This document shows, piece by piece, positions 13,219 through 56,556 of a stretch of 64,000 bases of DNA (its first letter is position 1; each line of letters starts with the position of its first letter). Source of the DNA: an uncultured bacterium (lineage in GTDB: Bacteria > Vulcanimicrobiota > Xenobia > Xenobiales > Xenobiaceae); contig CAKUBG010000013.1 of assembly GCA_934636825.1 (NCBI GenBank), positions 1,234 to 65,233 of the forward strand. The letters are read 5' to 3'. Under the pieces are notes generated by a model. The model was not told where the DNA came from and searched no databases. It was given only the letters and a program-made list of their open reading frames with translations. A program made the translations under genes and the position numbers.

Positions 13219-14157
13219 ATGAAGCCAATTAGAGTTGGCGTAGTCGGTATCGGCAGTATGGGTAGGAACCATGCTCGAGTGTGTTCTGAGCTGCCTCAGA
13301 TCGAATTGGCAGGTATTGTAGATCTTGATGAAGTCAAGGTCGCTCCTTTAGCTGGGCAATACGGTACGAAATATTATAAAGATTATCAAAGCCTTTATGG
13401 AAAAATTGACGGCGTAGTTATCGTTTCTCCTACTCCGCTCCACTACCAAATAGCTCAAGATTTTTTAGAGCATGGCATACATGTTTTAGTTGAAAAACCC
13501 ATTACTGTGGAAGTGGAACAAGCCAAGCGTTTGGTGGCTTTGGCCAAAGAGAAGAACTTAATTCTGCAAGTCGGCCATTTGGAACGCTTCAATCCTGCTA
13601 TTCTTAAGCTTAAAGAAATGGTGGGCACTCCCGTTCTTATCGAATGTCATCGCCTGTCTGGCCCTACGACCCGCAACTTAGATGTTGGTATTATTTGGGA
13701 TTTAATGATCCACGATTTTGATATCCTTTTGAGTTTGTATAAGTCTCCGGCGGAAGAAATTCATGCCATGGGCGCTTCTATCTACTCTAAATTTGAGGAT
13801 GTGGCTCATGTACAAATCCGTTTTGAGTGTGGCGCTGTAGCTAGTTTGGTAGCCAGCCGCAACTCTGGTGAGCGTAAGCGTTGCTTAAAAATTACCGAGA
13901 ATACCGGGCGTGTATTCTCCTTGGATTTCATCAATCAAACTTTGACAATTTCGCGTCCAGGGCCGGACGGTCGCCCTCTGGAACCTGAATTTGTCAATAT
14001 CGAAAAAGAAGAACCTCTCCGTTTGGAACTTAGTAACTTTGCGGATTGTGTTGCCAACCATAAAGAGCCTGTCGTTTCTGGAGAAGACGGTGAGCGCGCT
14101 TTGGAGTTGGCTGTGCATGTATTGGAAAATATGCATAGGATTAAGATTGCCGAGTAG
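13219..14157 (+). CDS. Gfo/Idh/MocA-family NAD-dependent oxidoreductase; GnnA-like candidate
   Basis: RBS GGGAGG. Rossmann N-terminus (IRVGVVGIGSMGRNHARV). Located between fabZ and lpxA. Confidence 0.75.
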   Translation: MKPIRVGVVGIGSMGRNHARVCSELPQIELAGIVDLDEVKVAPLAGQYGTKYYKDYQSLYGKIDGVVIVSPTPLHYQIAQDFLEHGIHVLVEKPITVEVEQAKRLVALAKEKNLILQVGHLERFNPAILKLKEMVGTPVLIECHRLSGPTTRNLDVGIIWDLMIHDFDILLSLYKSPAEEIHAMGASIYSKFEDVAHVQIRFECGAVASLVASRNSGERKRCLKITENTGRVFSLDFINQTLTISRPGPDGRPLEPEFVNIEKEEPLRLELSNFADCVANHKEPVVSGEDGERALELAVHVLENMHRIKIAE

Positions 14158-26581: not shown

Positions 26582-27415
26582 ATGGCTATCAAGGCTGAAG
26601 GATTAGTAAAAATATATAAAGATCGGCGAGTGGTTGATGGTGTAAATTTTGAGGTTAATCCTGGAGAGGTCGTGGGGCTTTTGGGAGCTAATGGAGCCGG
26701 CAAAACGACCACGTTCTATATGGTAGTGGGATTGATTAGGCCCAATGGAGGCAGAATTTTTCTTAACGGTCAAGATGTTACCCATTTGCCTATGCATGTA
26801 CGCGCACGCTTGGGAATAGGATATTTGCCTCAGGAGGCTTCCGCTTTTCGCAAACTTAGCGTAGAAGATAATCTTCGTCTGTTATGGCAGATCAATGGAG
26901 TATCTAAAAAAGAACAGGCCGAGCGCCTGGAAAGGCTGTTGGATGAATATCAATTGCACAAAGTTCGTCGCAGCAAAGCAGTAGAATTGTCCGGAGGCGA
27001 GAGACGCCGTTTGGAAATTGCCAGATCGCTGGCTATAAAGCCACAATTCCTTCTGCTTGACGAGCCGTTCTCTGGTGTAGACCCCATAGCCGTGGCTTCT
27101 ATTCAGAAAATTATTCGTAGTGTTAAAGCTCAAGGCTTGGGAGTGCTTATTACAGACCATAATGTGCGCGAGACTTTAGCTATCACAGATAGAGCTTATA
27201 TTATTCGTGAGGGCCGGATTCTTGTTTCCGGAACGGCAGTAGAATTAGCTAACAACCCAGATGCTCGTAAATACTATTTGGGAGAAGCTTACCGAACCGG
27301 GTTTGAAAATGAACAAACCGCCGCAGAAGTAGCTAAAGCTAAAATTGAGGAAGAGGCTGATAGCTTGAAAATGGCCGAAGAAGAAAAACTGCACCAAGCT
27401 GAAAAGGCAGACTAA
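26582..27415 (+). CDS. lptB: LPS export ABC transporter ATP-binding protein LptB
   Basis: Walker A GANGAGKTT. Signature LSGGERRR. Walker B LLLDEP. LptB-type C-terminal extension. Confidence 0.85.
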   Translation: MAIKAEGLVKIYKDRRVVDGVNFEVNPGEVVGLLGANGAGKTTTFYMVVGLIRPNGGRIFLNGQDVTHLPMHVRARLGIGYLPQEASAFRKLSVEDNLRLLWQINGVSKKEQAERLERLLDEYQLHKVRRSKAVELSGGERRRLEIARSLAIKPQFLLLDEPFSGVDPIAVASIQKIIRSVKAQGLGVLITDHNVRETLAITDRAYIIREGRILVSGTAVELANNPDARKYYLGEAYRTGFENEQTAAEVAKAKIEEEADSLKMAEEEKLHQAEKAD

Positions 27416-27424
27416 AAATACGTT

Positions 27425-28555
27425 ATGAAAATTTTGGATCGTTACATAATGGCAGAAATGGCAGGTCCGTTTCTATTCGGAGTTTGTGCCTTTACGCTAT
27501 TGTTCTTCTCAGCAGAAACTCTAATGGGTGTAGCTAAGATGATTTTGGAATCACAAGCCGGTATTGGCATGGTGATCAAATATCTCTTCAACCGCCTTCC
27601 TTACGTGCTGATTATGACTTTCCCCATGTCAACTTTGTTGGCCGCGTTAATGGCTTACGGTCGATTGTCCGGGGATAGTGAGATTATCGCCTTGAAAGCT
27701 GGCGGAGTTGGATTCTTCCGTATCTTTTTGCCCGGTTTCTTTTTCTGCTTTTTCATTTCGATGATTTCTTTAGCTGTCAACCAATACTGGGTCCCTCCGG
27801 CAACTAAGCAAGCCTACAATATGGTTCTCAAGTTGCAAGCTCCGGATCAAATCGAAAGAGCTTTGATTACTTCTCCACGCTTGCTTTCCAATGGCGATGA
27901 GCAAATGATTTACGCCCACGTGCTCAATGTTAATGAGCAAACAATGAAAGGCGTATATATGCATTTTTTCCGAAACAATAACCGTTTACGCGAATTATAT
28001 GCTAAAGAGGCTCGCTGGAATGATAAATTAAAAGTTTGGGAAGTTCTGGATATTGAAGCCAGAGATTTTGATCCTATTACCGGTGACGAGCGCTACAGTG
28101 CTAAAGGACGCAAAGGTTGGACGGCTATGAGCAAAGGTGAATCGCCTGCCAGCCCTGAGCAATTAGCTCAGCGCAAGCTTCGCCCTGAAGAAATGACCGC
28201 TCAAGAGCTGTCATCTTATTTAAATTCTTTGCCTCCAATAGAAAAAACTAACCCTGAGGAGTATCGCAAACGCAACAAGTATAAGGTAATGTATCACCAA
28301 AAGATCTCTTTACCTATGAGTTGTCTGGTGTTTGGAGCTTTTGCTATTCCTTTGGGGCTGAGGCCGCAAAGAACCAGCACTTCCATTGGCTTCGGACTTT
28401 CGTTATTCTTTATTTTGTTATATTACGTGTTCATGACTATAGGCATGATGTTGGGAGAAAATGGTGCTGCTGCTCCGTGGCTGGCTGCTTGGTTGCCCAA
28501 TATCGTTTTTGCCATAGTGGGAGTATGTTTTGTAGCTGATGCTTCCAGAAAATAG
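27425..28555 (+). CDS. LptF/LptG (YjgP/YjgQ) family LPS export permease
   Basis: N-terminus MKILDRYIMAEMAGPFLFGVCAFTLLFF. Six TM helices with a periplasmic beta-jellyroll insert. Only one F/G-type gene in the window. Confidence 0.75.
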   Translation: MKILDRYIMAEMAGPFLFGVCAFTLLFFSAETLMGVAKMILESQAGIGMVIKYLFNRLPYVLIMTFPMSTLLAALMAYGRLSGDSEIIALKAGGVGFFRIFLPGFFFCFFISMISLAVNQYWVPPATKQAYNMVLKLQAPDQIERALITSPRLLSNGDEQMIYAHVLNVNEQTMKGVYMHFFRNNNRLRELYAKEARWNDKLKVWEVLDIEARDFDPITGDERYSAKGRKGWTAMSKGESPASPEQLAQRKLRPEEMTAQELSSYLNSLPPIEKTNPEEYRKRNKYKVMYHQKISLPMSCLVFGAFAIPLGLRPQRTSTSIGFGLSLFFILLYYVFMTIGMMLGENGAAAPWLAAWLPNIVFAIVGVCFVADASRK

Positions 28556-43522: not shown

Positions 43523-44140
43523 GTGACTGGATTTAAACCACCAGACAAACCCGAGGAAGAAACTGCCGATGCTGCTTTGTTAGCTCGTTTTCAGGCTGGC
43601 GACGACTCTGCGTTTGATGAATTGATGACTATTTATTATCGTCCTGTACTGAATTTAATTTATAAATTCAAGGGCGGTTCAGCTAAGGAAGCTGAAGACA
43701 CTGCTCAGGAGGTTTTCCTTCAATTATATAAGGCTTTGCCCAGATTCGAACTCAGAGCTCGTCTCTTCACCTATATATATAAAGTGACTATGAATCAGTG
43801 CTTTAAGGAAAGAAAGAAGCGAGCTAAAGATGTTCCTCTTCAGATCAGTCTAGATGAACCTGTGGATAACGGCGGAGATCGTCCCATACAACGCGATTTT
43901 GCCGATCCCGGAGATTCTCCGTTAGAGTCTGTGGAATACGGGGAAGTCAGTCGTGAATTGCGTCGAGCACTTTTGAAAATTGACGAAGAAATGAGAGCTC
44001 CGCTGATAATGAACCGTTTTTACGATCTCACTTATGAAGAAATCGCAGAAACGTTGGGCATTACAGTCGCTGCGGTCAGATCTAGAATCCATCGGGCGCG
44101 TCAGACTTTACAAAAGTATTTGGGCAAGATATTTAGTTAG
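43523..44140 (+). CDS. ECF-subfamily RNA polymerase sigma factor
   Basis: Region 2 (FDELMTIYYRPVLNLIYK...AEDTAQEVFLQLYKAL) and a region 4 helix-turn-helix (LTYEEIAETLGITVAAVRSRIHRAR). GTG start at 43523 is uncertain. Confidence 0.7.
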   Translation: MTGFKPPDKPEEETADAALLARFQAGDDSAFDELMTIYYRPVLNLIYKFKGGSAKEAEDTAQEVFLQLYKALPRFELRARLFTYIYKVTMNQCFKERKKRAKDVPLQISLDEPVDNGGDRPIQRDFADPGDSPLESVEYGEVSRELRRALLKIDEEMRAPLIMNRFYDLTYEEIAETLGITVAAVRSRIHRARQTLQKYLGKIFS

Positions 44141-44157
44141 AAAGGAGTGCTCTCTTT

Positions 44158-44850
44158 ATGAAAGGTAACGAAAGCTCAGAAGCTGCTTTTTCGGACAATA
44201 TAGAATGTCAAGAGTGTATAGATAAATTATTGGAATATGAAGACGGGCTTCTTAGTGAACCTGATACTTCAAAACTTAAAAAACATTTAGAAGAGTGCTC
44301 CAAATGCCAACAGTATCAACATTCTTTAGGTGAGGTGTGGAAAAACTTAGATAAGGCCTTTCCACAAGAACTTGAGCCTTCTCCGGATTTTAAAGTACGA
44401 TTTTGGAAGAAGGTTGGGCAAGAATCAGACAAAGATAAAATTATCGATTTAGAAGCCAGGTTAAAAGCTAAAAATAAGTATTTGCGTTACTGGAAAGTTT
44501 TTACAGCTGCTGCATCTTTAACTGTGGTTGGCGGTGCTGTGCTTTGGAGTGCTTTCGCTAATAACGTCGCTACGTCATCTAATTCTGTAAGCTTGATGGT
44601 TAGTACCAATACTGCTGCAGGGGTCAATTCCACATTACAAAGAGGTTCCGAACAATCGATTGAGTCTGGAACTGAGTTTAGCGGTGATGAACCGTACTAC
44701 ACAGATTATGTTTTGGCTGATGAATTTAACAATAATGCCAACGAAGATCTGAGCAATAGCGTTATTTATGCTGATTACGAGCCGGATTATATAATGTCTC
44801 AAGAGCTTTTGGACATGGCTTTCGATGAAGCTGCCGACAGTGCACACTAA
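44158..44850 (+). CDS. Zinc-finger (ZAS-type) anti-sigma factor, single-pass membrane protein
   Basis: RBS AAAGGAG. HxxxCxxC motif (HLEECSKCQ) plus an upstream CQEC. TM helix VFTAAASLTVVGGAVLW. Confidence 0.65.
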   Translation: MKGNESSEAAFSDNIECQECIDKLLEYEDGLLSEPDTSKLKKHLEECSKCQQYQHSLGEVWKNLDKAFPQELEPSPDFKVRFWKKVGQESDKDKIIDLEARLKAKNKYLRYWKVFTAAASLTVVGGAVLWSAFANNVATSSNSVSLMVSTNTAAGVNSTLQRGSEQSIESGTEFSGDEPYYTDYVLADEFNNNANEDLSNSVIYADYEPDYIMSQELLDMAFDEAADSAH

Positions 44851-44876
44851 AAAAGATAGAGAGGTTTTACAATTCT

Positions 44877-45380
44877 GTGTTTAGGAAGATTGTGCTATTT
44901 ATTGCTATGGTGGGCACTTTGTCTCCTGCTTCCGGAGTGGCTTTGGCAGAAGAAGAAAGTGACTTTACCGAAAATGGAAGCGTACAAAAAACTGCTGTCA
45001 ATATTAGTGAGTGCAGTTTAGTTAAATGTCTGCCTGAAAACAATGCTACTGTTGTGGACAATTTGCCCAAGGGTAAATTTATAAGTCGCAAAGATAAGGA
45101 AGACAAGTTTCCCGAGGCCAAACAAGTAAGAGAAAAGTATCGTCCTCAAATGCTGCAACTCAGAGCGTCTATCAAAGAACTTCGAGGCAGAGTTGCCAGA
45201 GAGCTCACTTCTGATAACCCCAGCAAAGCGGTGGTGAAAAATTATCTCAATCAACTTGTTGAATTGCGTCGCAAACAGCAAATGCTTTTAGTAGATCAAA
45301 TGTTTGAAACTTTAGAACAGCTTCCTAAAGAAAAACGTGCTGATTATATCCAGCCTATTGTGGAGCATTGTTTGCGCTAA
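44877..45380 (+). CDS. Periplasmic helical protein, possibly Spy/CpxP (LTXXQ)-like
   Basis: GTG start after GAGAGG. Signal peptide present. Helical C-terminal half with LNQLVELRRKQQ-type motifs. Operon position directly after the sigma/anti-sigma pair. Confidence 0.4.
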   Translation: MFRKIVLFIAMVGTLSPASGVALAEEESDFTENGSVQKTAVNISECSLVKCLPENNATVVDNLPKGKFISRKDKEDKFPEAKQVREKYRPQMLQLRASIKELRGRVARELTSDNPSKAVVKNYLNQLVELRRKQQMLLVDQMFETLEQLPKEKRADYIQPIVEHCLR

Positions 45381-45404
45381 GTTGTAAAACTGAAAAATGC
45401 AATA

Positions 45405-45455
45405 AATAAGCTGCCGCCATCCTTAAATTGGAGGATAGCGGCAGCTTATTTGTTT
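45405..45455. terminator. Bidirectional terminator hairpin
   Basis: AAGCTGCCGCC-loop-GCGGCAGCTT followed by ATTTGTTT. Confidence 0.55.
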
Positions 45456-45529: not shown

Positions 45530-46282
45530 CTAAGCGCCGATAATGAAAGCGCTGTCGGCAATGCTAGGAGTGTCAATTATTGGCGAACTAGAAGCTTTCA
45601 GCACCGTATCGATGGTGTGAACGCTGGTAAGCACCAAATCAGGAGCTTTGACTACAGTTTTTGATTCGAGGTGGGAGCTGACCATTTGTCCAGCTCTATA
45701 AGCAAAAGCTGTTCTGGCTCTCACTTGTACAGATTGACTGATACCATCTTTTATATCAGCACTCATGGGGCCGGCAGACGTTTCGATAATGGCTACGTCG
45801 TAATTTTGCTCTGTATCCAAGCCGATCAGTTTATGCTCAAATTTTAAATCGAGAGTAATCGATTGACCTTTATCTCCTAAAGGAATTTCCAAAGGTTTAA
45901 TCTCTGTCCAAGAAGAGCCTACTTGTTGCAAACCGCTGGGAAATACGGGCTGGTTTATGTTGGCATTGACGGTAGAGCGAGTTATGCGCCCGGTCTTCTC
46001 TACAGTCATACCAATAGTCTGACCGACAGCAGGCAAGGGAAGCCTTTGATTATTGCGCTCAATGAAGCCATCGGTAACATTGACGTCTACATCGAAGGTA
46101 GTTCCGGAAACTTTAGTCACCTTCTGGTCGGTATACATCTCCATAACGACGTCAGTATTGCTGATCTCTTCGTTATTTTCTTCTGTTTTTTGTTTTGAGT
46201 GCATTATCGTTTGGTAAGAAAGCACTTCTCCGGTGGCGGCTTTATATTCTAAAAATACGCCTTCAGTATTGAGCATTTGCAA
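45530..46282 (-). CDS. Hypothetical protein (250 aa), predicted all-beta and soluble
   Basis: ORF with coding-like composition. No signal peptide. No recognisable motifs. Confidence 0.45.
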   Translation of the reverse strand: MQMLNTEGVFLEYKAATGEVLSYQTIMHSKQKTEENNEEISNTDVVMEMYTDQKVTKVSGTTFDVDVNVTDGFIERNNQRLPLPAVGQTIGMTVEKTGRITRSTVNANINQPVFPSGLQQVGSSWTEIKPLEIPLGDKGQSITLDLKFEHKLIGLDTEQNYDVAIIETSAGPMSADIKDGISQSVQVRARTAFAYRAGQMVSSHLESKTVVKAPDLVLTSVHTIDTVLKASSSPIIDTPSIADSAFIIGA

Positions 46283-46339: not shown

Positions 46340-48166
46340 CTAAAATCCTTTACCGGCATGTAAAATATCCCAGTTTAGTTTGTTGTAACTGCGGCAAAGC
46401 TCATCGATATTTTGTTTATCTTTAAGATATTGCAAGGAACTGTGACGTAAAGTCAAAGCATAGTCCTTGTCTCCTTGTTTTTGAGCAAATTCAGCCTCTT
46501 TTTGTAAAGGTTCTATGTCTTGACAAACCTTCTTTATTTCCTGAATCCTTTGGCCAGAAGTTGGATGAGTACTAAACCAAGGAATATGAAGTTTGGCTTG
46601 TCCGGATTCTTGCTGGTATAATTCGAGTTTTTCTAAGGTAGCGCAAAATTCTTGAGGATTGTAACCAGCGGCAAAAGAAAGTTGCACAGCGCTGCGATCA
46701 GCCTCATATTCTTGCTCACGCGAAAAGCCCTTATTTATTAAGTCTGTCGCTTTTTGCGAGCCTAAATATCCCCAATAGCTGCGGGTTGTATAGCGCATAA
46801 CTGTACCCAAAATATTGGATATATTGCCACGCATTTTGCTAGCATTGCCATGTTTGTGCAATATATGAGCAAACTCGTGGGCCAAAACAGCAGCCAGTTC
46901 GTCATCGCTTTCCAAGATCTTTAATAATCCAGAGGTAACAAAAACTGGCCCACCAGGGACGGAGAGAGCTTGCGCCTCTGGGGAATTAAGCACGACAAAG
47001 TCGCACAAATCTGGAGAGAAACCGTTGCCTTCTAAGAGCTGCCGACCGATTTTTTGGACTCGACTTATTGCTTCTTGATCTTGGCTTAAACTGTAACGAC
47101 TCTGAACTTGAGAAGCTCCCTCTTTAGAAAGTTCTCGGTCTTGTCTACTCATACTTAAATATGGATCGTCTTTGGGAAAGCAAACTGCGCATGGTTCGTA
47201 TCCCTTGCGTTTAGCAAGCTTCTCGTCTTTAAAGGCATAAAGACGACTATTTGTAGAAAGGTGATTCGCTCCGGGCTTATGGTATTGCTTGCTTTCCATA
47301 TTTACCACAACCCCATGAAGCTCGCCCCACTCTTGAAGCGCTTGATCGCATAAATTTTGCCACCCTTTGCCTTTGGCTAAAGGGGCTCGCACTTCGCGCT
47401 CGTCCAAAAGTTCCAGATCATACAAATGGCCTAACAAGTTTTTGCCTTCTTGGCGAACGACGAGAACTTTACGTGGTAAAATGACTCTAGAAGCGTAATC
47501 AGATTGCATAAAGAGAGCGAGATTCTTTACTAGAGCAGCTTTTTCGCTATCACTCAAATTGTTTGTGGCTTTGGCATTAAAAAGTACTTCCGGGTCGCAA
47601 ACTATTTGTTGGTTTTGCTCTAAAGGAAGGGGAGGCGAGGTTCTTTTTAGTAGGCCATGATTGTCGAAAGAGACTAGAGCTAATTCAGGGCGCTGGACAT
47701 CTAAATCTTCGTCTTCAGGAAAGGCATTAGAATTTGGGAAAATTTCTTCTTTATCTTCTGGAGAATCGATCTTGGCTGCCGGAATAGATTGCCAAGTTGG
47801 TGATTGGTTATCTGAGGGGCTACTTGTAACGACCGGACGATCATGATTTAGAGCAGGGAGAGTAACTGCACGATTTTGATTGGGTGAAGTCGGCGTAGTG
47901 TTGGGAGCGCTGGCTCCGGGAAGAGAGTATTCCGGTGATTTACCGTTTGGAGTTGATTTCGGAAGTAAAATCGGAGGCTCTTGAGTTAAAGAAGGCTCGT
48001 CCTCACTTATATCAAGGTCACCGGGCAGTTCAAAGTTCTGAGCCAGCCAGGGCTCCGAATGCTTAGGAGCAGGGGCTGGCAAGTTGGCTGAAGATATTGA
48101 GCAGCAAACGTTAAAAGAGACGACAAGGCCCATAAGGCCGCCTAATAGCTTAGAATTGTGATTCAA
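46340..48166 (-). CDS. M48-family zinc metalloprotease with a long Pro/Ser-rich N-terminal region and a Cys motif reminiscent of Ada-type metal binding
   Basis: Signal peptide present. HExxH zinc motif (AHEFAHILHKHG). Downstream Glu (EYEADR). Central Cys motif GYEPCAVCFP. Confidence 0.7.
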   Translation of the reverse strand: MNHNSKLLGGLMGLVVSFNVCCSISSANLPAPAPKHSEPWLAQNFELPGDLDISEDEPSLTQEPPILLPKSTPNGKSPEYSLPGASAPNTTPTSPNQNRAVTLPALNHDRPVVTSSPSDNQSPTWQSIPAAKIDSPEDKEEIFPNSNAFPEDEDLDVQRPELALVSFDNHGLLKRTSPPLPLEQNQQIVCDPEVLFNAKATNNLSDSEKAALVKNLALFMQSDYASRVILPRKVLVVRQEGKNLLGHLYDLELLDEREVRAPLAKGKGWQNLCDQALQEWGELHGVVVNMESKQYHKPGANHLSTNSRLYAFKDEKLAKRKGYEPCAVCFPKDDPYLSMSRQDRELSKEGASQVQSRYSLSQDQEAISRVQKIGRQLLEGNGFSPDLCDFVVLNSPEAQALSVPGGPVFVTSGLLKILESDDELAAVLAHEFAHILHKHGNASKMRGNISNILGTVMRYTTRSYWGYLGSQKATDLINKGFSREQEYEADRSAVQLSFAAGYNPQEFCATLEKLELYQQESGQAKLHIPWFSTHPTSGQRIQEIKKVCQDIEPLQKEAEFAQKQGDKDYALTLRHSSLQYLKDKQNIDELCRSYNKLNWDILHAGKGF

Positions 48167-48387
48167 GGCTTGTTCGGTTCCTTTGCGAAGAAGAGCACCG
48201 GCTGTGGTAGCGAGTAAAAACTATAGAACTTTTTTCATCGCCAAAAAAACAGTAAGTACCGGGAAAAATTGTACAATATTTGTGGGTGTGTTTCAAATTT
48301 TTTATTCGAAGCCGTTTTGTGAGAAATAAGGAACAGAGACGGTAAGTGTCGAAGTTGTAGAGGAATGTTTTCTTCAGGAATGATGCT

Positions 48388-49587
48388 ATGAGCGATATCG
48401 ATTATTTAGAGCGATTGCCTAAAATTAACAGTGCAGCTTCTACAGACAACAGCTTTGCCTTATCAGAAGACGAGCGCCAAACGCTCGATGAAGAATCTAA
48501 GACGAAATTGATCGAGTTGCTGAAGCGTGAGGAGTCTGGAACTACTTCTGAAATAGTCAGCCGTTTTAAGAGCGGAGACAAAGAAGCTGCCGAGATTCTG
48601 GTGCGTACTTTCTATCCCTATGTTGAAAGTCTCTTGGTGGCTTTGGAAAAACGCGATTTGCAAGAGAGAGCTAGTGAGCGGGGAGGCATAGCACCGGCTT
48701 TAATTAGCAGCGGTGGTCGTCGCAAAGAGTTTCTTAATAGCTTTTTTACTGATTTCGTCAATAAAGCTGCTGATATAGATTTAAGTAAAGGTATTCGTCT
48801 TTATCTTTACAGCCATTGTGCCGAGCCTTTTATTAAACGTCTTCAGGACACTTTGGAGCAGCCGAAGGATAATACCGAAAGTTTAAAAGACAGTAGCCGA
48901 GAACGCAGTCTTTTCTTAGATGACGAACCCGGGCACAAGGCTTTAGCCTCAACCAATTACAGAAGCCAGGACTATAGCAACCCAGCCAAAGACAGTCTTT
49001 TTTTTGAAGATATTCCCAAACCCAAGATGAGGATATCTGGTATACCGGCGACCAGAAGCTTAAGTGGCAAAGAAGATGTTGTAAACCGTGAACGCAATTC
49101 TGTTGCAAAAACAGGAGGCGTTAAGGGGCCTGTATATATGCGTCAAAGTGACAGCTTGGCAGGTGCTGCAAGTAGTGGAAGCATTGAAGTGCGGCGTGTC
49201 GGTACTTTGGGAAATGCTTCTAATCAAGCCCAATTGTTGCGCACTGATTCTGGCACTAAAACTGCTATTTCGTCGCGTATACCTAGGAATAATGTCCATT
49301 TAGCTCCGGCTTTGAGCCCTTCTGAGGATATTCCGGAAAAAGAACCGGTTTCTGCCGCTCCTACAGCTCCGGCCCAACTGTCGCGTAAAGCTCAGGCAAT
49401 AGCCGGTGGCTTAAAAAAATTGGCAGTCACCGATTTAGAAGCCTATCGGACTGTAGTTATGCGTTATTTTGCTAATTGCTCATTTGCTGAGTTGTGCCAG
49501 AAATTGGAAGTTACTTCCGCAGGAGAGATTGGCTTACGCCTTTTGCGAGGTTTATTGAGCCTGGGTGGCGAGCAACGCCCTAGTTAA
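48388..49587 (+). CDS. Divergent sigma-70/ECF-like protein with a ~200-aa Ser-rich insertion between region-2-like and region-4-like segments
   Basis: SRFKSGDKEAAEILVRTFYPYVESLL parallels ARFQAGDDSAFDELMTIYYRPVLNLI of the neighbouring ECF sigma. C-terminal helix-turn-helix-like segment FAELCQKLEVTSAGEIGLRLLRG. Confidence 0.5.
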   Translation: MSDIDYLERLPKINSAASTDNSFALSEDERQTLDEESKTKLIELLKREESGTTSEIVSRFKSGDKEAAEILVRTFYPYVESLLVALEKRDLQERASERGGIAPALISSGGRRKEFLNSFFTDFVNKAADIDLSKGIRLYLYSHCAEPFIKRLQDTLEQPKDNTESLKDSSRERSLFLDDEPGHKALASTNYRSQDYSNPAKDSLFFEDIPKPKMRISGIPATRSLSGKEDVVNRERNSVAKTGGVKGPVYMRQSDSLAGAASSGSIEVRRVGTLGNASNQAQLLRTDSGTKTAISSRIPRNNVHLAPALSPSEDIPEKEPVSAAPTAPAQLSRKAQAIAGGLKKLAVTDLEAYRTVVMRYFANCSFAELCQKLEVTSAGEIGLRLLRGLLSLGGEQRPS

Positions 49588-49720
49588 GAGTTCTCCGCTT
49601 TTTATTTTCTGTAAAAAAAGTGTATTTTTTAGACAGATTCGACGATAGCTGGATGGTAGAAATATTGTGAGACCAAAGAAAAATGGCGCAGAGATTTGCC
49701 AAAACGAATATATAAAGGCT

Positions 49721-51232
49721 ATGTTGGTACCTTACGCGGAGCGTTCCTTGGCTAAAGCGAATCGCGCTGAAGTAGAGGCTCATTTAGCTGAATGCCAGTT
49801 TTGCCGTGAAGAAGTTAGACGCTTACACGACCTTATGCGTCCTTTGAGCGAATTGGCTAAAAGCGGGTTTAAACCTGTTTATGATGCTCATCCAACTCAT
49901 GAGCAATTGTTCCGCTACTCTGTCGGTGATAGGAGACAGAGTAGAGAAGAACAGCGCAATATTCGTTTGCATATATTTATGTGCAGCGATTGTAGTAAAG
50001 AAATTCAGCTTATCAAACAAGTAGAGCACGACTTTGAGGGACTTTCCGCCGAAGACAGCAGCCGTTGGACTATGCCTCCGGTATTACGCAATCTCTTCGC
50101 TTCTCCCAGTCGCACTTCCGTTATAGTAGAAAACGCTTTAGAAGAGCGCATCCCCAACATAGAACGCGTGCGAGCTATAATGCAAAAAGTTAATTTGCAT
50201 TTGGTCGGTGTCGTGGCGGCTATTATTTTGTTGATGTTCATTTGTTTATCGTTTATTACTTGTGGCAGCGGAGATGATGAACAACAAGCTAAAGTCAGTC
50301 CTTCACCTTCAAGCTCAGTTGTAGCGGCACAGACTGCAGTTAAAGAGGAATGGGTTGTTTTGCCTTTGGGTGACTTCAGCCCTGTAGAGGCTTGCACGGT
50401 ACTAAGTTCTCAAGATATTGCCTATCGCAGCACTAGAGGACGCTTAGAAGTAAAAGAAATTGATTTGGAAAGGGCCCAAGCTGCAGTAAATAAATATCGG
50501 GAAGGGTACAACTTACCTGAAAGTGCTCTAGCTTTGGAGGATAGCTCCACTCAGGATAGCTATGCTGAGGAGCAACCTTCTATTTCTGAAGATAATTATG
50601 ACTCTGCATCTACAGAGACGTCTAGCGATCCTGTCGACTATAATTCTGCTGTCGGAGAAGAAGAAAAATCTGGGGCCAATTATGACACTACAGTGGCGGA
50701 TAACAGATCGGTGGAAGAACCAACTGTCTCTGTGGCTGTTGCTCCTAAGTCTGTACAAGCTACAGCATCTCATAGCAGCAAAACTTTCTCTCAGCCGCGT
50801 GTAGCCGTACCTGCACATCGTGCTGTTGTTCGTCCTGTTTATAGTGCTCAGCCTAAAGTTAAAGCTAAGGTTGCCTCTCGACCTACACGCGCTTACGATA
50901 CAGCAGCCTATCAGCCTGCACCGTCTCCTATTTCTAAAACTTCAAAAAAGGTCTCTCCTGGAGACGGCCCCACACCTATTTCTGCTTCCTATGTTGCAGG
51001 CAGCAACCACCCCGAATCTTCACCCCGTTCAGCTGTCGCCCCTTCGCCGGCTATTATTCGTCCCGGCTCTGATGTAACCGTTTCTTCTATGCGCCGTCAC
51101 ACTTCTAAAACTGAATATGCGGCCGAAAGTACTGTTGCTGCTGAAGAACATACTTCTAAAAATGAAAACATGGTGGGTGGCAACACCTATGACGATGCAG
51201 ACAGCGTTACAAATCGCGATACTATAGAGTAG
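49721..51232 (+). CDS. Anti-sigma-factor-like single-pass membrane protein with a long Ser/Pro/Ala-rich extracytoplasmic tail (alternative GTG start at 49667)
   Basis: ATG preceded by AAAGG. Two H/C-x3-C-x2-C motifs (HLAECQFC, FMCSDCSK). TM helix LVGVVAAIILLMFICLSFI. ~300-aa low-complexity periplasmic region. Confidence 0.55.
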   Translation: MLVPYAERSLAKANRAEVEAHLAECQFCREEVRRLHDLMRPLSELAKSGFKPVYDAHPTHEQLFRYSVGDRRQSREEQRNIRLHIFMCSDCSKEIQLIKQVEHDFEGLSAEDSSRWTMPPVLRNLFASPSRTSVIVENALEERIPNIERVRAIMQKVNLHLVGVVAAIILLMFICLSFITCGSGDDEQQAKVSPSPSSSVVAAQTAVKEEWVVLPLGDFSPVEACTVLSSQDIAYRSTRGRLEVKEIDLERAQAAVNKYREGYNLPESALALEDSSTQDSYAEEQPSISEDNYDSASTETSSDPVDYNSAVGEEEKSGANYDTTVADNRSVEEPTVSVAVAPKSVQATASHSSKTFSQPRVAVPAHRAVVRPVYSAQPKVKAKVASRPTRAYDTAAYQPAPSPISKTSKKVSPGDGPTPISASYVAGSNHPESSPRSAVAPSPAIIRPGSDVTVSSMRRHTSKTEYAAESTVAAEEHTSKNENMVGGNTYDDADSVTNRDTIE

Positions 51233-51235
51233 CGT

Positions 51236-52150
51236 ATGGGTATTCCTGTTCTGGAAGTTACCAATTTAGCCTATTGGGGGGACAATGTCGCTTTAAAGGT
51301 TCCTATGTCCTTCGTTTTGGAAGCTGGAGACATAGGAGTAGTTATCAGTCAAAATCTGAGCAGCTCGGCCAATTTGTTGCATGCTGTAGCTGGAATGCCA
51401 ACTTCACGCCGCAACAAGATAAGTATCGGCGCTCATGCAAACACTTCTACTGCTGCCAAGTATTTGTTTGGATTTGTTCCTGCAAAGTCGGAATTTTATG
51501 AAGAACTTACCGTTTGGGAACAACTGGCTATTGGCGCTGAATTATACAATGTAGACAAACACTATCGTCCTTATGCTATATATGAAGCTCTGGAAATTAC
51601 CCAAATAACTCAATATAAAGATGTACAACTTGTCCAAATTGCTGATCTAAATTTGCGCAAACGCATAAGTATAGCCGGAGCTTTGGTACACAGTCCGCGT
51701 TTAGTTATAATAGAAGATCTATTCAGAGGTAGTGACTTTCGCAATTGGCAAAAAATGACCGATATACTTGACCAAATTCGTAATACCGGTAAAGCCATTC
51801 TTTTGTCTGCTGAAAGTTTACTCAACCTAGAATCACTGTACAGTCAATTATTTGTTGTCGGTGAAAATGAAGTTTTTGTGCACGGCTTGTATCCTCAAAT
51901 AGCGCAAAAAATCGGACAATACAATTTAGTGCAATTACAAGTTTGGGATACAGGAATAGATAGTGCCATACATTGTTTAAATGAGTCAGTCGATGTATTC
52001 GACATATTGCAAAAGGACGACGATCCTGGAGTATTGCGTTTCTTTTTTAAGGGTGACGGTACAAAATTGCATAATCTTGTCTCAATTTTAAAAAATAACA
52101 ATATACCCATTGTATCTTGTTTGGCTGTAGACAATTTTTTTGGACGCTGA
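51236..52150 (+). CDS. ABC-ATPase-fold protein with degenerate catalytic motifs (pseudo-ATPase)
   Basis: The expected Walker A position reads SQNLSSSANLL, with no Lys. The Q-loop Gln is replaced (VPAKSE). The signature reads LNLRKR. Walker B reads VIIEDL. The H-loop His is absent. Starts 4 nt after the upstream stop. Confidence 0.6.
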   Translation: MGIPVLEVTNLAYWGDNVALKVPMSFVLEAGDIGVVISQNLSSSANLLHAVAGMPTSRRNKISIGAHANTSTAAKYLFGFVPAKSEFYEELTVWEQLAIGAELYNVDKHYRPYAIYEALEITQITQYKDVQLVQIADLNLRKRISIAGALVHSPRLVIIEDLFRGSDFRNWQKMTDILDQIRNTGKAILLSAESLLNLESLYSQLFVVGENEVFVHGLYPQIAQKIGQYNLVQLQVWDTGIDSAIHCLNESVDVFDILQKDDDPGVLRFFFKGDGTKLHNLVSILKNNNIPIVSCLAVDNFFGR

Positions 52151-52355
52151 AACACTTTTTTAGCGGAAGGAGAACAATTGGGGCTGTAGAACCGATCACG
52201 AAAGTTCATTTCACAACTGAACTGCTTAGGGCGGGCTGTCCTTCACGAAACGTAAGGAATTGTGTTCGGCAGTTTCGTTTTTGGGGCTGTCAAAAATGGT
52301 CCCGTCAACATTGAGATGGCCCTTGAGGGCCGAGAAAGCGAGTGGAGTAGGCTAA

Positions 52356-52889
52356 ATGCGTAAATTCACAGCCACACTCTTCCTGCTGGCCACTTTGTCG
52401 CTGGGCTGCCTAGCGGTAGGTGCTGCGCCGGCTATGGCGGATGAGAGCATGAAGACCGTGAACTTAGTAACTGAGTTCGGTCCTTACACTTATAGTATTT
52501 ATGAGTATCCTTCTTACAATACCAGTTTCTTCTTCTATGAGAATAGCTACGTCGAATTTGACGTAGTAAATGGTACTTCTTGGAGAATCGAAGCCCCTAA
52601 GGCTATGATTCACAAGGAGCCCGCTGTCCCCGGTGAGACTTTGCTGGGCACCGGCCGCACCTACAATTCCATCGAGAATTTTGACGTATACTTCTACGCT
52701 CCCGACGGCACTCTCTTAGCTACCCGCAAGAACGCTAGATTGAGCGACAATTATAGCTTCCCCCGTGAGCGTCAGCATGACAAGGTGCGTGTGCGCATCG
52801 AGTCTAGAGGCGTGCAGAACTTAGATGCTAAGTTCATCGTTTGGGATCCGGTCAACCCTGTGGTTGCCAAACCCATTGTAGAGAAGTAG
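52356..52889 (+). CDS. Small secreted protein (177 aa), unknown function
   Basis: Signal peptide with AxA site (AAPAMA-DE). RBS GGAGTAGG. Aromatic-rich predicted beta protein. Confidence 0.5.
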   Translation: MRKFTATLFLLATLSLGCLAVGAAPAMADESMKTVNLVTEFGPYTYSIYEYPSYNTSFFFYENSYVEFDVVNGTSWRIEAPKAMIHKEPAVPGETLLGTGRTYNSIENFDVYFYAPDGTLLATRKNARLSDNYSFPRERQHDKVRVRIESRGVQNLDAKFIVWDPVNPVVAKPIVEK

Positions 52890-52979: not shown

Positions 52980-53020
52980 AGACATTTCCGGCAATATAGT
53001 CGGAAACGTCTATTTTTTTT
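52980..53020 (+). terminator. Rho-independent terminator candidate
   Basis: AGACATTTCCG-loop-CGGAAACGTCT followed by ATTTTTTTT. Confidence 0.5.
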
Positions 53021-53165: not shown

Positions 53166-55097
53166 ATGGCTGCGCAAACATATGAATTTCAGGCTCAGGC
53201 TCGCCAACTCTTAAATTTAGTTATCAATTCTATTTATTCTAATAAAGAAATATTTTTACGTGAGTTGCTCTCCAATGCCTCTGACGCTTTAGATAAATTA
53301 CGTTTAGAAGCTTTGAAAAATTCCGAGTTGGAAGCTGACCTTTCCCATTTGCATATCACCATTGAACGCGATACCGAAAAGCGCACTTTGAAAGTGATAG
53401 ATAATGGTATCGGTATGAATGCCGAAGATCTTAAAGGTTTGATTGGTACAATCGCTCGCTCTGGAACTGCTGAGTTTTTGCAAAAAGCTACCGAAAACAA
53501 ATCAGAAGCTGCTGAATTGATTGGTCAGTTTGGTGTTGGCTTCTATTCTGTGTTTATGGTTGCCAAGAAAGCCGTTATCGAAACTCGCAAGCTCGGAGAT
53601 AAGGAAGGTTATCGTTGGGAATCTGCTGGAGACGGCTCTTATACTATTGAAGAAGCTGGGCCGCTCCCTCAAGGTACCGCTATTACTTTATATTTGAAAG
53701 ATGCCGATGAAGAAAACGAGTTAGCCGATTATACTCAAGAATGGGTTATACGCGATTTAGTAAAGCGTTATTCAGATTTTATCTCTTATCCCATTGAGAT
53801 GATGGTTACTAAACGGGAGACAATTCCTGCCGATAAAGAAGGCGGGGAGCCTAAGACTGTTGAGAAGCAAGAGTTAGAGACTCTCAATTCTATGAAAGCT
53901 CTTTGGGCTCGTCCTGAAAGCGAAGTCGAGCCTAAGGAATATAATGACTTCTACCGTCGCATAGCTCACGATTGGCAAGATCCTTTAAAAGTTATTACCA
54001 TGAAGGGCGAAGGTACGTTCGAATTCCAAGCCTTGCTTTTCATTCCGGCTAAAGCTCCCTTCGATTTATATATGCCTGAAAGCAAGAGAGGCATACAGCT
54101 CTATGTAAAGCGCGTCTTTATCATGGATGATTGCGAAGAACTCTTGCCTCCTTATCTTCGCTTCTTGCGCGGTGTAGTCGATTCCAGCGATCTTTCTCTC
54201 AATGTTTCCAGAGAGATTTTACAAAAAGATCGTCAGATTAAGGCTATTAACAAGAGTATTGTCCGCAAGGTTTTGAGCGTACTCAAAAATATGTTGGAAG
54301 AAAAACCTGAAGAATATCGCAAATTCTGGCAAGAATTTGGTAAAGTGCTTAAAGAAGGGCTTTATAATGATGCTTCCAACCGTGAGAGAATTTTGGATGT
54401 CATGTTGGCAGATTCTACTCATTCTGCCGAGTTGACTACTCTCAAAGATTATGTCTCTCGTATGAAAGAGGGACAAGAGAACATCTATTATATTACCGGA
54501 GAAAATCGCGAGCGCTTAGCTAAAGCTCCGCAAATGGAGGTTTTTAAAGCTAAAGGTATTGAAGTGCTCATTTTGAGTGATCCTATCGACTCTGTTTGGG
54601 TAGAGATGGTTAGCGAATACCAAGGCAAGAAGTTCAAATCTGTATTGCGTGGTGCTCTTGAATTGGGTGATGAAGCTGAAAAGAAGGCTGCTGAAGAAAA
54701 ATTGGAAACGCAGCGCAAAGACTTGGCTTCTATGACCGCTTGGATGGGTAGCGATTTGGAGAGTAAAGTAAAAGAAGTTCGCGTCTCTAACCGACTCACC
54801 GATTCGCCAGCTTGTTTGGTCTCCGATGAAAACGACCCTACACCTTCCATGGAAAAGATTATGAAAGCTATGGGACAAAATTTCCCTGCAGTAAAGCGTG
54901 TTTTGGAGATTAACCCTGAGCATGCCATAATCAAGCGTTTGCATGAACTTTACAGTCAAGATGGAGATAGTGAAGATCTTAAGTCTGTTGTAGATTTGAT
55001 TTACGATCAGGCTGTCTTGGCTGAAGGTGGCGAACTTGCCGATCCGGCCGGTTTCTCTGCTGCTTTAAGTAAAGTAATTAGCAAAGCTTTGCACTAG
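53166..55097 (+). CDS. htpG: Molecular chaperone HtpG (Hsp90)
   Basis: GHKL ATPase N-terminus (YEFQAQARQLLNLVINSIYSNKEIFLRELLSNASDALDKLR). Family-typical middle and C-terminal domains. 643 aa. Confidence 0.9.
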   Translation: MAAQTYEFQAQARQLLNLVINSIYSNKEIFLRELLSNASDALDKLRLEALKNSELEADLSHLHITIERDTEKRTLKVIDNGIGMNAEDLKGLIGTIARSGTAEFLQKATENKSEAAELIGQFGVGFYSVFMVAKKAVIETRKLGDKEGYRWESAGDGSYTIEEAGPLPQGTAITLYLKDADEENELADYTQEWVIRDLVKRYSDFISYPIEMMVTKRETIPADKEGGEPKTVEKQELETLNSMKALWARPESEVEPKEYNDFYRRIAHDWQDPLKVITMKGEGTFEFQALLFIPAKAPFDLYMPESKRGIQLYVKRVFIMDDCEELLPPYLRFLRGVVDSSDLSLNVSREILQKDRQIKAINKSIVRKVLSVLKNMLEEKPEEYRKFWQEFGKVLKEGLYNDASNRERILDVMLADSTHSAELTTLKDYVSRMKEGQENIYYITGENRERLAKAPQMEVFKAKGIEVLILSDPIDSVWVEMVSEYQGKKFKSVLRGALELGDEAEKKAAEEKLETQRKDLASMTAWMGSDLESKVKEVRVSNRLTDSPACLVSDENDPTPSMEKIMKAMGQNFPAVKRVLEINPEHAIIKRLHELYSQDGDSEDLKSVVDLIYDQAVLAEGGELADPAGFSAALSKVISKALH

Positions 55098-55188: not shown

Positions 55189-55362
55189 GCATTTTTTACT
55201 TATGGTTTGAAAGGAATTATGCTCAAATTGGGGTAGTAAAGGCAGCTTTTGCTTTTATATAATTTTTTTCAGCTGCGCAGCAAAATTATTGGGCGTAAGA
55301 CCAAGCTGGTTTTAGCCTTATAGTTTTGCTTTTTTTTTGTGAATTTGAGGTTTTTTTCTTAC

Positions 55363-56556
55363 ATGAAAGAGAATTCCAGAGCTTTTTTGCTATTATTTAT
55401 GGGCGTATTAACTGCCTTTGGGCCGTTTGTAACAGATATGTATTTGCCCACTTTACCTTCCATGACCGAGTATTTCTCAACCGGTATGTCTCAAGTTCAG
55501 CTGGGACTCACTTTCTCTATGCTGGGGTTGGCTCTTGGGCAACTTGGCTTTGGCCCTTTAAGCGATAAAATAGGTCGACGTCATCCTTTGCTCATTTCTA
55601 TGGTCGTATTTGTTGTCTCGACTTTGGCTTGTATCTTCGCTCCTAATATTGAATTCTTTCTGGGAATGCGCTTTTTGCAAGGTATAGCTGGAGCGGGTGG
55701 TATTGTTATAGCTCGTTCTATTGCTGCCGATAAATTTTCCGGTCGTGATTTGGCCAAAGCTTTGGCTATTGTTGGAGCCATTAACGGCGTTGCTCCTGTT
55801 GCGGCTCCCATTATAGGTGGAGTTTGCTGCGATTTTATCGGTTGGCGCGGTATTTTCGCCATTTTATTAGTTTTGGGCTTAATTATAGGCCTTATGTGCT
55901 TTTTTTATAAAGAAACTCTTGAAGAAGACAGACGCTCTAAGGAAAAATGGTCGTCTGTTTTAAAAATGTTCAGCACAGTCATAAAGAAAAAACGCTTCAT
56001 CAGTTATGTTTTGCAAATGGCTGCGGCACAGGGAATCCTTTTTGGCAATATTGCTTCCTCGCCGTTTTTAATTCAAAATTTGCACCACAAAAGCGCTTTG
56101 GTCTTTAGTTTGTATTTCGCTGTTAATTCCATTGCTATTGCTATGGGTGCTGCCATGTCTGCCAAATTTGAAAAACAAGAAAAATGTATTTTTTATAGTT
56201 GTGTAGGCATGTTGCTGGGCGCTGTGGCTTGCGCTTTGGCTTTAAATTTAGGTGCTTCCTTAATCATTTATGAAATTATAGTTACAGCTCTTTGCTTTGC
56301 CATGGGCATGACTTTTACAGCAGCTACCGCTTTAGCTATGAATGAAGTACGTGACAATGCTGGTGCTGGATCGGCAATTTTTGGAGCCTTAGGTTTTATA
56401 GTTGGAGGCTTAGTTTCTCCTTTAGTAGGTTTAGGCGAGATTACTCATTCAGTATCAATTGTCTTTATAGTAGCTGCACTTACTTCCACTTTGTTTGCTT
56501 GGTTAGCTAGGCGTACTACAGACAACGTTTTAGCAAAAGTGAATGCTGCTGCCTAA
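55363..56556 (+). CDS. MFS transporter, Bcr/CflA drug-efflux-like; start revised to ATG 55363
   Basis: 12 predicted TM helices. MFS motif GPLSDKIGRRHPL. RBS GAGG. Confidence 0.75.
   Translation: MKENSRAFLLLFMGVLTAFGPFVTDMYLPTLPSMTEYFSTGMSQVQLGLTFSMLGLALGQLGFGPLSDKIGRRHPLLISMVVFVVSTLACIFAPNIEFFLGMRFLQGIAGAGGIVIARSIAADKFSGRDLAKALAIVGAINGVAPVAAPIIGGVCCDFIGWRGIFAILLVLGLIIGLMCFFYKETLEEDRRSKEKWSSVLKMFSTVIKKKRFISYVLQMAAAQGILFGNIASSPFLIQNLHHKSALVFSLYFAVNSIAIAMGAAMSAKFEKQEKCIFYSCVGMLLGAVACALALNLGASLIIYEIIVTALCFAMGMTFTAATALAMNEVRDNAGAGSAIFGALGFIVGGLVSPLVGLGEITHSVSIVFIVAALTSTLFAWLARRTTDNVLAKVNAAA

Follow-up and report, generated by a model that had tools for sequence, protein, structure and literature searches.

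The nucleotide-binding domains (NBDs) of type V ATP-binding cassette (ABC) exporters, the ABC-2/DrrA/NatA/ABCA-like group that includes TM_1403 (4yer), NosF, ABCA3/4/7 and the B. subtilis YxlF type, have a two-domain fold that is shared by the product of a gene at 51236..52150 of a 64 000-nucleotide stretch of DNA (the window) from an uncultured bacterium of the lineage Xenobia (contig CAKUBG010000013.1). This protein, referred to here as pseudo-ABC, differs from the type V exporter NBDs in that its ATP-binding and hydrolysis motifs are all lost, a permease gene is not adjacent and its scores lie far under the curated cutoffs. By descent pseudo-ABC is a type V exporter NBD with a regulatory domain, which has kept the fold but not the functional attributes by which that family is recognized.

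Loss of motifs from an ABC domain has precedent in heterodimeric exporters with a degenerate site, among them TM287/288, PatAB, TAP1 and CFTR NBD1 (reviewed in PMC7756269). The likeness is that in those systems the catalytic Glu, the H-loop and the signature are substituted and the protein is nevertheless functional. In degenerate-site exporters, however, only one of the two composite sites is degenerate; an intact Walker A still allows the degenerate NBD to bind ATP, and this NBD contributes a good signature or Walker A/B to the active site. Both half-sites are gone from pseudo-ABC, a soluble NBD that stands alone and has no transmembrane domain.

By function, EcsAB and the sigma factor operons with ABC transporter genes described below come closest to the window module, each with a canonical ATPase and a permease. 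EcsAB of B. subtilis has been described as regulating the site-2 protease (S2P) RasP, which degrades RsiW and RsgI (PMC7478892), and resembles the present case in that an ABC-2-type ATPase is functionally tied to the fate of anti-sigma factors. RsgI has a long extracytoplasmic disordered region (PMC9732909), and the same feature is found in the anti-sigma-like protein encoded at 49667..51232, immediately upstream of pseudo-ABC. The EcsA model 9a6w_B was among the Foldseek matches of pseudo-ABC, at rank 16 and with 19% identity, a similarity that is generic to NBDs. EcsA differs in being a canonical ATPase with a membrane partner, EcsB, in being encoded away from sigma and anti-sigma genes and in having no C-terminal regulatory domain; no EcsB- or S2P-like gene was found within the module containing pseudo-ABC, from the list of open reading frames (ORFs) and Pfam searches.

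Operons that combine regulators of this type with ABC genes include sigY-yxlCDEFG of B. subtilis, an extracytoplasmic function (ECF) sigma operon in which ABC transporter genes are present. YxlF2G2 has been listed as a type V exporter (PMC11466899), and ECF258 and ECF234 are ECF groups associated with ABC transporters (PMC7826278). These systems and the window have in common an ECF sigma factor, one or more negative regulators and an ABC-2-type NBD gene in one conserved neighbourhood; they differ in that the NBD of the former is canonical and has its own permease, while the module in the window has a dead NBD and no permease. The rpoE-rseA-rseB-rseC operons encode a sigma factor, a single-pass anti-sigma factor and accessory proteins, including a periplasmic one. 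The window module shares this operon logic but the accessory proteins are unrelated, the secreted protein p177 of the module having no RseB/LolA-like match, and Rse operons are not known to contain an NBD-fold protein. No description of a dead NBD within a sigma/anti-sigma operon was found in the open-access literature, which yielded only canonical ECF-linked ABC transporters and EcsAB acting at a distance.

An ABC domain with non-canonical ATP-handling motifs

The gene at 51236..52150 encodes an ABC NBD homologue with a C-terminal regulatory domain, and every ATP-handling motif in it is non-canonical. The elements concerned are:

51236..52150, + strand: pseudo-ABC gene, an ORF of 304 aa with an ATG start; residues 1-227 form the NBD fold
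51347..51370, + strand: Walker A equivalent, S38-Q-N-L-S-S-S-A45 where GPNGAGKT is canonical; no Gly-rich loop, Lys replaced by S44 and Ser/Thr by A45
51482..51484, + strand: Q-loop position, Gln replaced by Ala83; variable among orthologues
51638..51655, + strand: equivalent of the signature (LSGGQ), I135-A-D-L-N-L140; variable even inside the close clade
51701..51736, + strand: Walker B equivalent, L156-VII-E160-D161, and the D-loop-like R164-G-S-D167, placed by alignments
51812..51814, + strand: H-loop position, His replaced by Glu193
51917-52147, + strand: C-terminal regulatory domain, residues 228-304, beta-alpha-beta-beta-alpha-beta in the AlphaFold2 model

Motif positions were read by alignment to P0035, a canonical relative, and to the LptB protein encoded in the window (26582..27415). 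The first-pass annotation, made from the sequence alone, had described an ABC-ATPase homologue with all nucleotide-handling motifs mutated, and both alignments confirmed this description: the Walker A, Q-loop Gln, signature, Walker B and H-loop His were each non-canonical at the aligned position. Comparison with LptB and other ABC ATPases, the check which that annotation had proposed, gave a conserved fold with the motifs lost. At Walker B, where hhhhD-E is canonical, the Asp is replaced by E160 and the catalytic Glu by D161, and other members of the clade have E-N; in the D-loop SGLD is replaced by RGSD, with Asp167 kept. A frameshift or an alternative start, which had been named as a possible refutation, was not found, as GxxxxGK[ST], an LSGGQ-like motif and hhhhDE each occurred zero times in any of the six frames of 51100..52300, which also contains no N bases.

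Sequence searches placed pseudo-ABC near ABC ATPases but below the limits for membership. The Pfam ABC_tran (PF00005) score was 13.6 bits, below the gathering cutoff of 25, and all 86 NCBIfam matches fell far under their cutoffs, the best being drrA (TIGR01188; 62.1 bits, 5e-17, cutoff 312.45). The best sequence matches in the PDB were NBD2 of ABCA3 with its R-domain (6.6e-12) and LptB (1.8e-9). The alignments extended to residue 294 with drrA and to residue 274 with the ABCA3 regulatory domain.

The ABC-like fold that had been anticipated, with its RecA-like and helical subdomains, was borne out by structure prediction. An AlphaFold2 model generated from an 18-sequence alignment had a mean local confidence (pLDDT) of 91.9 and a predicted template modelling score (pTM) of 0.89, and a Foldseek search of this model against the PDB returned ABC NBDs only, with a probability of 1.00 to many of them and E-values down to 3e-18. 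The top matches carry a C-terminal regulatory domain (TM_1403 (4yer), MetN, NosF, ABCA7, ABCA4 and ABCA3; also 7o0y, 8ee6 and 7lkp), and the NBD core gave target-normalized TM-scores of 0.78-0.82 to LptB and TM0544 across about 225-230 residues. The regulatory domain of type V exporters consists of two helices and a four-stranded sheet (PMC11466899), a topology shared by the C-terminal 77 residues of pseudo-ABC. The former P-loop is collapsed in the model, with the helix beginning three residues early.

Each ATP site of an ABC protein draws its Walker A and B motifs from one NBD and its signature from the partner NBD (PMC7756269). Both contributions are gone from pseudo-ABC: the signature, which forms one half of the site, and the other half, to which the P-loop, Walker B, H-loop and Q-loop belong. 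Having neither half-site, pseudo-ABC is predicted to be unable to power transport or to complete a degenerate heterodimeric site.

Selection and graded motif loss in the family

Pseudo-ABC is kept by purifying selection and is one member of a sharply delimited family in which motif loss is graded. Thirteen close orthologues were identified with 52-100% identity, all of them colinear and of 301-308 aa, and full-length orthologues are known from 89% down to 24% identity. A genome scan with the protein returned four close genomes only. Against four genomes with 76-89% protein identity, the ratio of non-synonymous to synonymous substitution rates (dN/dS) was 0.09-0.14, and in the same four-genome comparison the values for the neighbouring genes were 0.08-0.11 (sigma-like gene) and 0.08-0.10 (anti-sigma gene). 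Residues that are invariant in the close clade include Q39-N40-L41, E160, G165-S166-D167-F168, W171, R182-N-T-G-K-A187 and R268-F-F-F-K-G273.

Full-length relatives that share 24-37% identity were recovered by an exhaustive phmmer search, and the distant clusters of the family number more than 35. A family profile separated members (at least 280 bits) from canonical ABC ATPases (139 bits at most), the window protein scoring 425 bits. The family is defined here by a length of ~300-325 aa, the lack of LSGGQ and of the H-loop His, a gene placed directly 3' of that for a zf-HC2 single-pass protein, and three sequence hallmarks. These are a HYRPY-type motif that follows the helical subdomain, RNxGK ahead of the H-loop position and (I/V)VSC..FFG at the C-terminus, and they are represented in the window protein by H109-Y-R-P-Y113, R182-N-T-G-K186 and I292-V-S-C295...F301-F-G-R304. 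Among the better phmmer matches was P0021, a protein of 804 aa with three tandem ABC NBDs in one polypeptide, all with a canonical Walker A, which is an uncommon architecture.

When motif states were placed on the family tree, the signature, the H-loop His and the Q-loop Gln were gone from every member and the catalytic Glu from nearly all. GxxxxGK[ST] is kept in a large P0032-like clade and in P0016, P0018 and P0022-P0025, while the P-loop is lost in a monophyletic clade that holds the window protein and, independently, in P0026 and P0027. This distribution shows that the hydrolytic apparatus was lost first and the phosphate-binding loop later, with the window protein as the end state; the signature, H-loop and Q-loop had already gone at the base of the family, and the P-loop was lost later in the window clade. 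Some members carry automatic labels such as 'ATP-binding cassette domain-containing protein' or 'ABC-2 type transport system ATP-binding protein', and for this family such ABC-transport labels are misleading.

In the outermost relative, P0028 (L011 8001-9895), Walker A is degenerate (VDVERHSAS) and the signature and H-loop are missing, yet its gene is followed by that of an ABC-2 permease. P0028 and P0063 are both degenerate ABC-2-type NBDs encoded beside an ABC-2 permease; the surroundings are Clostridia-like, with a gene for a SCIFF peptide near by, and motif-dead NBDs attached to permeases may be commoner than assumed.

A conserved sigma/anti-sigma gene module

The features surrounding the pseudo-ABC gene are:

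45530..46282, - strand: p250, a conserved 250-aa protein of no known family
46340..48166, - strand: M48 metallopeptidase that bears a signal/anchor sequence, its gene running divergently to the sigma-like gene (Pfam Peptidase_M48 2.2e-27; synteny)
48330..48353, + strand: ECF-type promoter-like element, GGAAC-N14-TCGAA, ~35 nt upstream of the sigma-like gene
48388..49587, + strand: probable divergent ECF sigma factor, 399 aa, with a sigma2-like N-terminal region, a low-complexity insert of ~220 aa and a C-terminal sigma4 helix-turn-helix
49667..51232, + strand: single-pass zf-HC2 anti-sigma-like protein of the zinc-binding anti-sigma (ZAS) type, 521 aa (Pfam zf-HC2 1.1e-7 and NCBIfam anti-sigma models, each matching two stretches)
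52151..52355, + strand: ultra-conserved leader between the pseudo-ABC gene and p177, with a GGCCC-TTGA-GGGCC hairpin and a GGAG Shine-Dalgarno sequence; no terminator detected
52356..52889, + strand: p177, a secreted or membrane-anchored beta-sandwich protein of 177 aa
52985..53006, + strand: terminator-like hairpin after p177, from a terminator scan
53166..55097, + strand: HtpG (HSP90), the downstream neighbour in most loci (ORF, synteny)

In 12 of the 13 family loci examined, the ABC-like gene lies directly 3' of a zf-HC2 single-pass gene in all cases with recovered upstream sequence, with a gap of -4 to +12 nt; this junction was recorded for L001-L010, L012-L017 and the window. The proteins of these 12 sigma-linked loci span 24-89% identity to the window protein, and the arrangement holds at 32%, 29%, 28% and 24%. 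In the recovered flanks a sigma-type gene is found 5' of the zf-HC2 gene and a p177 homologue 3' of the ABC-like gene, the homology of these partners having been verified. The close junction pointed out in the first-pass annotation was upheld: the TAG of the anti-sigma gene (51230-51232) ends 3 nt before the ATG at 51236, and the gap is conserved in the 12 sigma-linked loci.

The description of pseudo-ABC as an orphan also stood, as neither the window nor any of the sigma-linked loci, which comprise 12 contigs with flanks of up to 10 kb, has an adjacent permease gene. The only cognate ABC-2 permease beside a family-related NBD is that of the outgroup locus L011, in an unrelated context. The multi-pass proteins encoded in the window are an LptF/G-type protein (27425..28555), a major facilitator superfamily transporter (55339..56556) and a few others far away. 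LptB, which adjoins LptF/G, is the only canonical NBD in the window; at 26582-28555 LptB (26582..27415, 277 aa, ABC_tran 5.9e-35) is directly followed by an LptF/LptG-family permease (1e-79). Presence of LptB with LptF/G indicates a diderm host, and a lineage with a lipopolysaccharide-containing outer membrane.

p250 is usually divergently encoded and co-occurs with the module; homologues were detected in L017 (5e-53) and L010 (2e-33), with positional equivalents in L001, L003, L004 and L006. The M48 gene adjoins the module in most loci and is absent beside it in L010. The terminator scan found none between the module genes before 52985-53006, which is probably the 3' end of a sigma/anti-sigma/pseudo-ABC/p177 transcription unit. 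A defence system was considered and rejected, none of the five module proteins tested having been matched by PADLOC.

The product of 48388..49587 is probably a divergent ECF sigma factor. It gave weak matches to the Sigma70_ECF, SigI and plancto1 models, one orthologue matching Sigma70_ECF at 3.7e-6. The equivalent position in L010 is occupied by a textbook ECF sigma factor of 180 aa, and hhalign of the window protein to this canonical sequence aligned sigma4 only (E=2.3e-4); the sigma2 assignment rests on a weak SigI-model match and a MAFFT alignment. The protein is approximately twice the normal length of an ECF sigma factor, and the inserts of its orthologues vary from ~100 to 370 residues, giving proteins of 283-550 aa.

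The GGAAC-N14-TCGAA element upstream of this gene is conserved in the window, L015 and L003 and is degenerate in L001. The pattern GGAAC-N13-16-TCGAA has three matches in the window, where 0.4 are expected; the other two exact matches, at 657-681 and 13980-14004, mark possible regulon members. A second trio is present upstream at 43523-45380 and encodes a canonical ECF sigma factor (205 aa), a zf-HC2 anti-sigma factor (230 aa) and a Metal_resist (CpxP/Spy-like) protein (167 aa). This trio follows a pyruvate:ferredoxin oxidoreductase (PFOR) gene at 39772-43320, an arrangement repeated in L001, L003 and L006. The promoter at 48330 could be read by either sigma factor, that of the 48388 gene or that of the trio. 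A sub-threshold Rfam match to Plastid-psbJ-3 at 45342-45455 (36.5 bits, gathering score 61.7, E=0.006) begins in the 3' end of the Metal_resist gene, which ends at 45380, and extends into the gap before p250; it is probably a shared terminator-like hairpin between convergent genes.

For the anti-sigma gene the first-pass annotation had placed the start at ATG 49721, and this had to be revised. A Cys located 28 residues before HxxxCxxC is invariant in 11 loci and falls upstream of that ATG, and therefore the start is probably GTG 49667. From this start the cytoplasmic N-terminus contains two zinc sets, C11/H39/C43/C46 and H75/H102/C106/C109, and all eight residues are invariant in 11 loci. C11-x27-H39-x3-C43-x2-C46 fits the ZAS motif C/H-x(23-28)-H-x3-C-x2-C, and a single transmembrane helix and an upstream sigma-type gene are present too; the protein thus has the features of a ZAS-type class I anti-sigma factor and is predicted to bind a sigma factor. 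Both H-x3-C-x2-C motifs are preceded by a C/H ligand 27-28 residues upstream. Tandem duplication of the zinc-binding domain was considered, but BLASTP between the halves found nothing, and the second set is described here as a second HxxxCxxC motif, not as a proven repeat. The transmembrane helix is predicted at residues 179-197 (50201-50257), and it is followed by an extracytoplasmic tail of ~300 residues which is disordered or of low complexity, rich in Ser, Pro and Ala, and ends in the conserved C-terminal motif GGNxYDxxDSVxxR(D/E)TIE. Beyond the first zinc motif, H75, H102, C106, C109, P137, L140, R141, N176 and L177 are invariant or near-invariant cytoplasmic residues and are candidate docking determinants. 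Conserved segments of the anti-sigma-like protein include W-T-x-P-P-x-L-R-N-L and a juxtamembrane K-(I/V)-N-L.

Homologues of p177 are present in every locus with downstream sequence; in L017 a gene of 714 aa is inserted between the ABC-like gene and p177. Approximately 45 nt of the leader (AGATGGCCCTTGAGGGCCGAGAAAGCGAGTGGAGTAGGCTAAATG) are nearly invariant even in loci where the identity between ABC-like proteins is no higher than 28-32%. Among closer genomes, in which coding dS is at least 1, ~150 nt are near-identical, and the conservation of the leader is far above that of synonymous sites. The dS of p177 itself is 0.13-0.48, compared with 1.0-1.6 in the neighbouring genes, and its signal peptide is almost invariant. 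No Rfam family matched within the leader (52151..52355), and RNAalifold predicted three hairpins with a covariation term of ~0 because the sequence hardly varies. The leader and p177 could represent a regulatory 5' untranslated region or a very strongly expressed gene. AlphaFold2 modelled p177 as a generic beta-sandwich (pLDDT 72), for which Foldseek found nothing in the PDB at E<=1e-3. p177 was rejected as an RseB-, LolA- or lipocalin-like partner, the PDB profile search giving only a non-significant lipocalin match (E=0.32) and Foldseek none.

The module is found in Xenobia (Vulcanimicrobiota/Eremiobacterota) and relatives. The named relatives are metagenome-assembled genomes (MAGs), comprising Candidatus Bruticola (Xenobia, Vulcanimicrobiota), UBP9_UBA4705 (Hadza gut) and one labelled 'Riflebacteria'. 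The last, L012 (CAAGRW010000096.1), is a human-gut MAG labelled 'Candidatus Riflebacteria bacterium' whose module proteins are 89-99% identical to those of the window; the other relatives being Xenobia/UBP9, this label is probably a misclassification.

Function and significance of the dead NBD

On balance, the reading preferred here is that the dead NBD has been recruited to the sigma/anti-sigma module as an accessory subunit in the cytoplasm, acting as scaffold or co-regulator without need of nucleotide, and is not part of a transporter. The ancestor would have been an ABC-2/DrrA-like transporter ATPase. The family would first have lost its permease, signature, H-loop and Q-loop, with members that bear a P-loop perhaps still binding nucleotide, and the window clade would then have lost the P-loop too. 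In a module ordered as ECF-type sigma factor, single-pass ZAS anti-sigma factor, pseudo-ABC and secreted 177-aa protein, selection maintains pseudo-ABC as the third gene, and translational coupling would cause it to be made in fixed proportion with the anti-sigma factor. Pseudo-ABC may then bind the cytoplasmic part of the anti-sigma factor (~175 residues), in which conserved linear motifs lie beyond the sigma-binding zinc domain, and in this role it could set the strength of sigma factor retention or the way in which the anti-sigma factor is broken down. The evidence for binding to the anti-sigma factor and for a regulatory effect is the conserved gene order and the tight coupling. The first-pass annotation had suggested modulation of the anti-sigma factor from the junction in the window, and this suggestion becomes considerably more plausible with those data. 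A more far-reaching version is put forward tentatively, and is rather less probable: this may be a new three-component form of ECF sigma control, in which an ABC ATPase domain has been captured by an anti-sigma factor as an obligatory cytoplasmic co-regulator and living lineages preserve the successive stages, from forms with a P-loop, which may bind but not hydrolyse nucleotide, to forms blind to nucleotide such as the window protein.

Several observations weigh against an accessory subunit of this kind. The stretch of the helical subdomain after the Q-loop (EFYEELTVWEQL) is highly conserved in close orthologues. In real transporters this region contacts the coupling helix of the permease, and its conservation would also fit a permease partner encoded elsewhere. 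The permease survey covered 64 kb of the genome, and an orphan ABC-2 permease may be present at another site. P0028 combines a degenerate Walker A with an ABC-2 permease, so motif loss alone is no proof of a lost transporter role. p177 is equally co-conserved, and the true partner could be p177 biogenesis. Nucleotide might also be bound by pseudo-ABC in a non-canonical manner.

It is unlikely that pseudo-ABC is a non-catalytic subunit of an ABC-2 (type V) transporter whose permease, with or without a catalytic NBD, is encoded elsewhere, the operon link then reflecting co-regulation. In sequence and in fold it comes closest to the NBDs of ABC-2/DrrA/ABCA-type transporters, the Q-loop-proximal helix that would contact a coupling helix is strongly conserved, the outgroup P0028 pairs a degenerate P-loop with an adjacent ABC-2 permease and there is precedent in the ABC transporter-associated ECF groups ECF258 and ECF234 (PMC7826278). 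However, a permease lies beside the gene in none of the sigma-linked loci, and a protein without Walker A/B and signature could make no contribution to a composite ATP site even in a heterodimer. The junction of the gene is with the anti-sigma gene and not with a transporter gene, and the one further NBD encoded in the window is part of the complete LptB-LptFG set.

An equally improbable alternative is that the remodelled ATP pocket senses a nucleotide or small ligand and relays metabolic state to the sigma/anti-sigma switch. Within the close clade the signature position varies but Q39-N40-L41, E160, G165-S166-D167-F168 and W171 do not, which suggests that the former active-site face is still functional, and many family members keep GxxxxGK[ST] without the hydrolytic motifs, a pattern expected of binders and not of hydrolases. 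Yet the Gly-rich loop, the Lys and the Ser/Thr that hold phosphate are all gone from pseudo-ABC, the loop is collapsed in the AlphaFold2 model, where the helix starts three residues early, and the sequence allows no ligand to be proposed.

A role centred on p177 is considerably less probable again. Pseudo-ABC would here belong to a remnant membrane complex of the mechanotransmission type, FtsEX/MacB-like but without ATP, together with the anti-sigma transmembrane helix and p177, or would serve in export or assembly of p177 instead of in sigma control itself. Such a role would account for a p177 gene downstream in every locus with sequence available, and it would fit the almost invariant signal/anchor segment, the ultra-conserved leader and the lack of a terminator separating p177 from the pseudo-ABC gene. 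Between them, however, the anti-sigma factor and p177 have only two single transmembrane segments and lack both a multi-pass domain and any known type of coupling helix, the p177 fold search gave no informative match and the 714-aa insertion in L017 makes the link to p177 looser than that to the anti-sigma gene. That the gene is a decaying pseudogene, or that a normal ABC ATPase gene has been misread through a frameshift or an assembly artefact, might be supposed from the non-canonical state of all catalytic motifs and the Pfam score under threshold, but this is refuted almost beyond doubt by an intact ORF of equal length in more than 13 independent assemblies, a dN/dS of 0.09-0.14, a confident fold model, conservation of the odd residues themselves and the six-frame check, in which no alternative frame bore the motifs.

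Stand-alone ABC domains that lack both ATP half-sites and are yet under selection are rare. If pseudo-ABC is a true partner of the anti-sigma factor, it would be a new accessory component in ECF signalling, and the family would offer a clean evolutionary series from enzyme to pseudoenzyme, in which an energy-transducing enzyme became a pure signalling scaffold. Xenobia are an uncultured, animal-gut branch of Vulcanimicrobiota/Eremiobacterota for which functional knowledge is almost nil, and in this lineage the sigma factor, anti-sigma factor, pseudo-ABC, p177 and p250, often with the M48 protease and HtpG, constitute a conserved, lineage-defining regulatory module.

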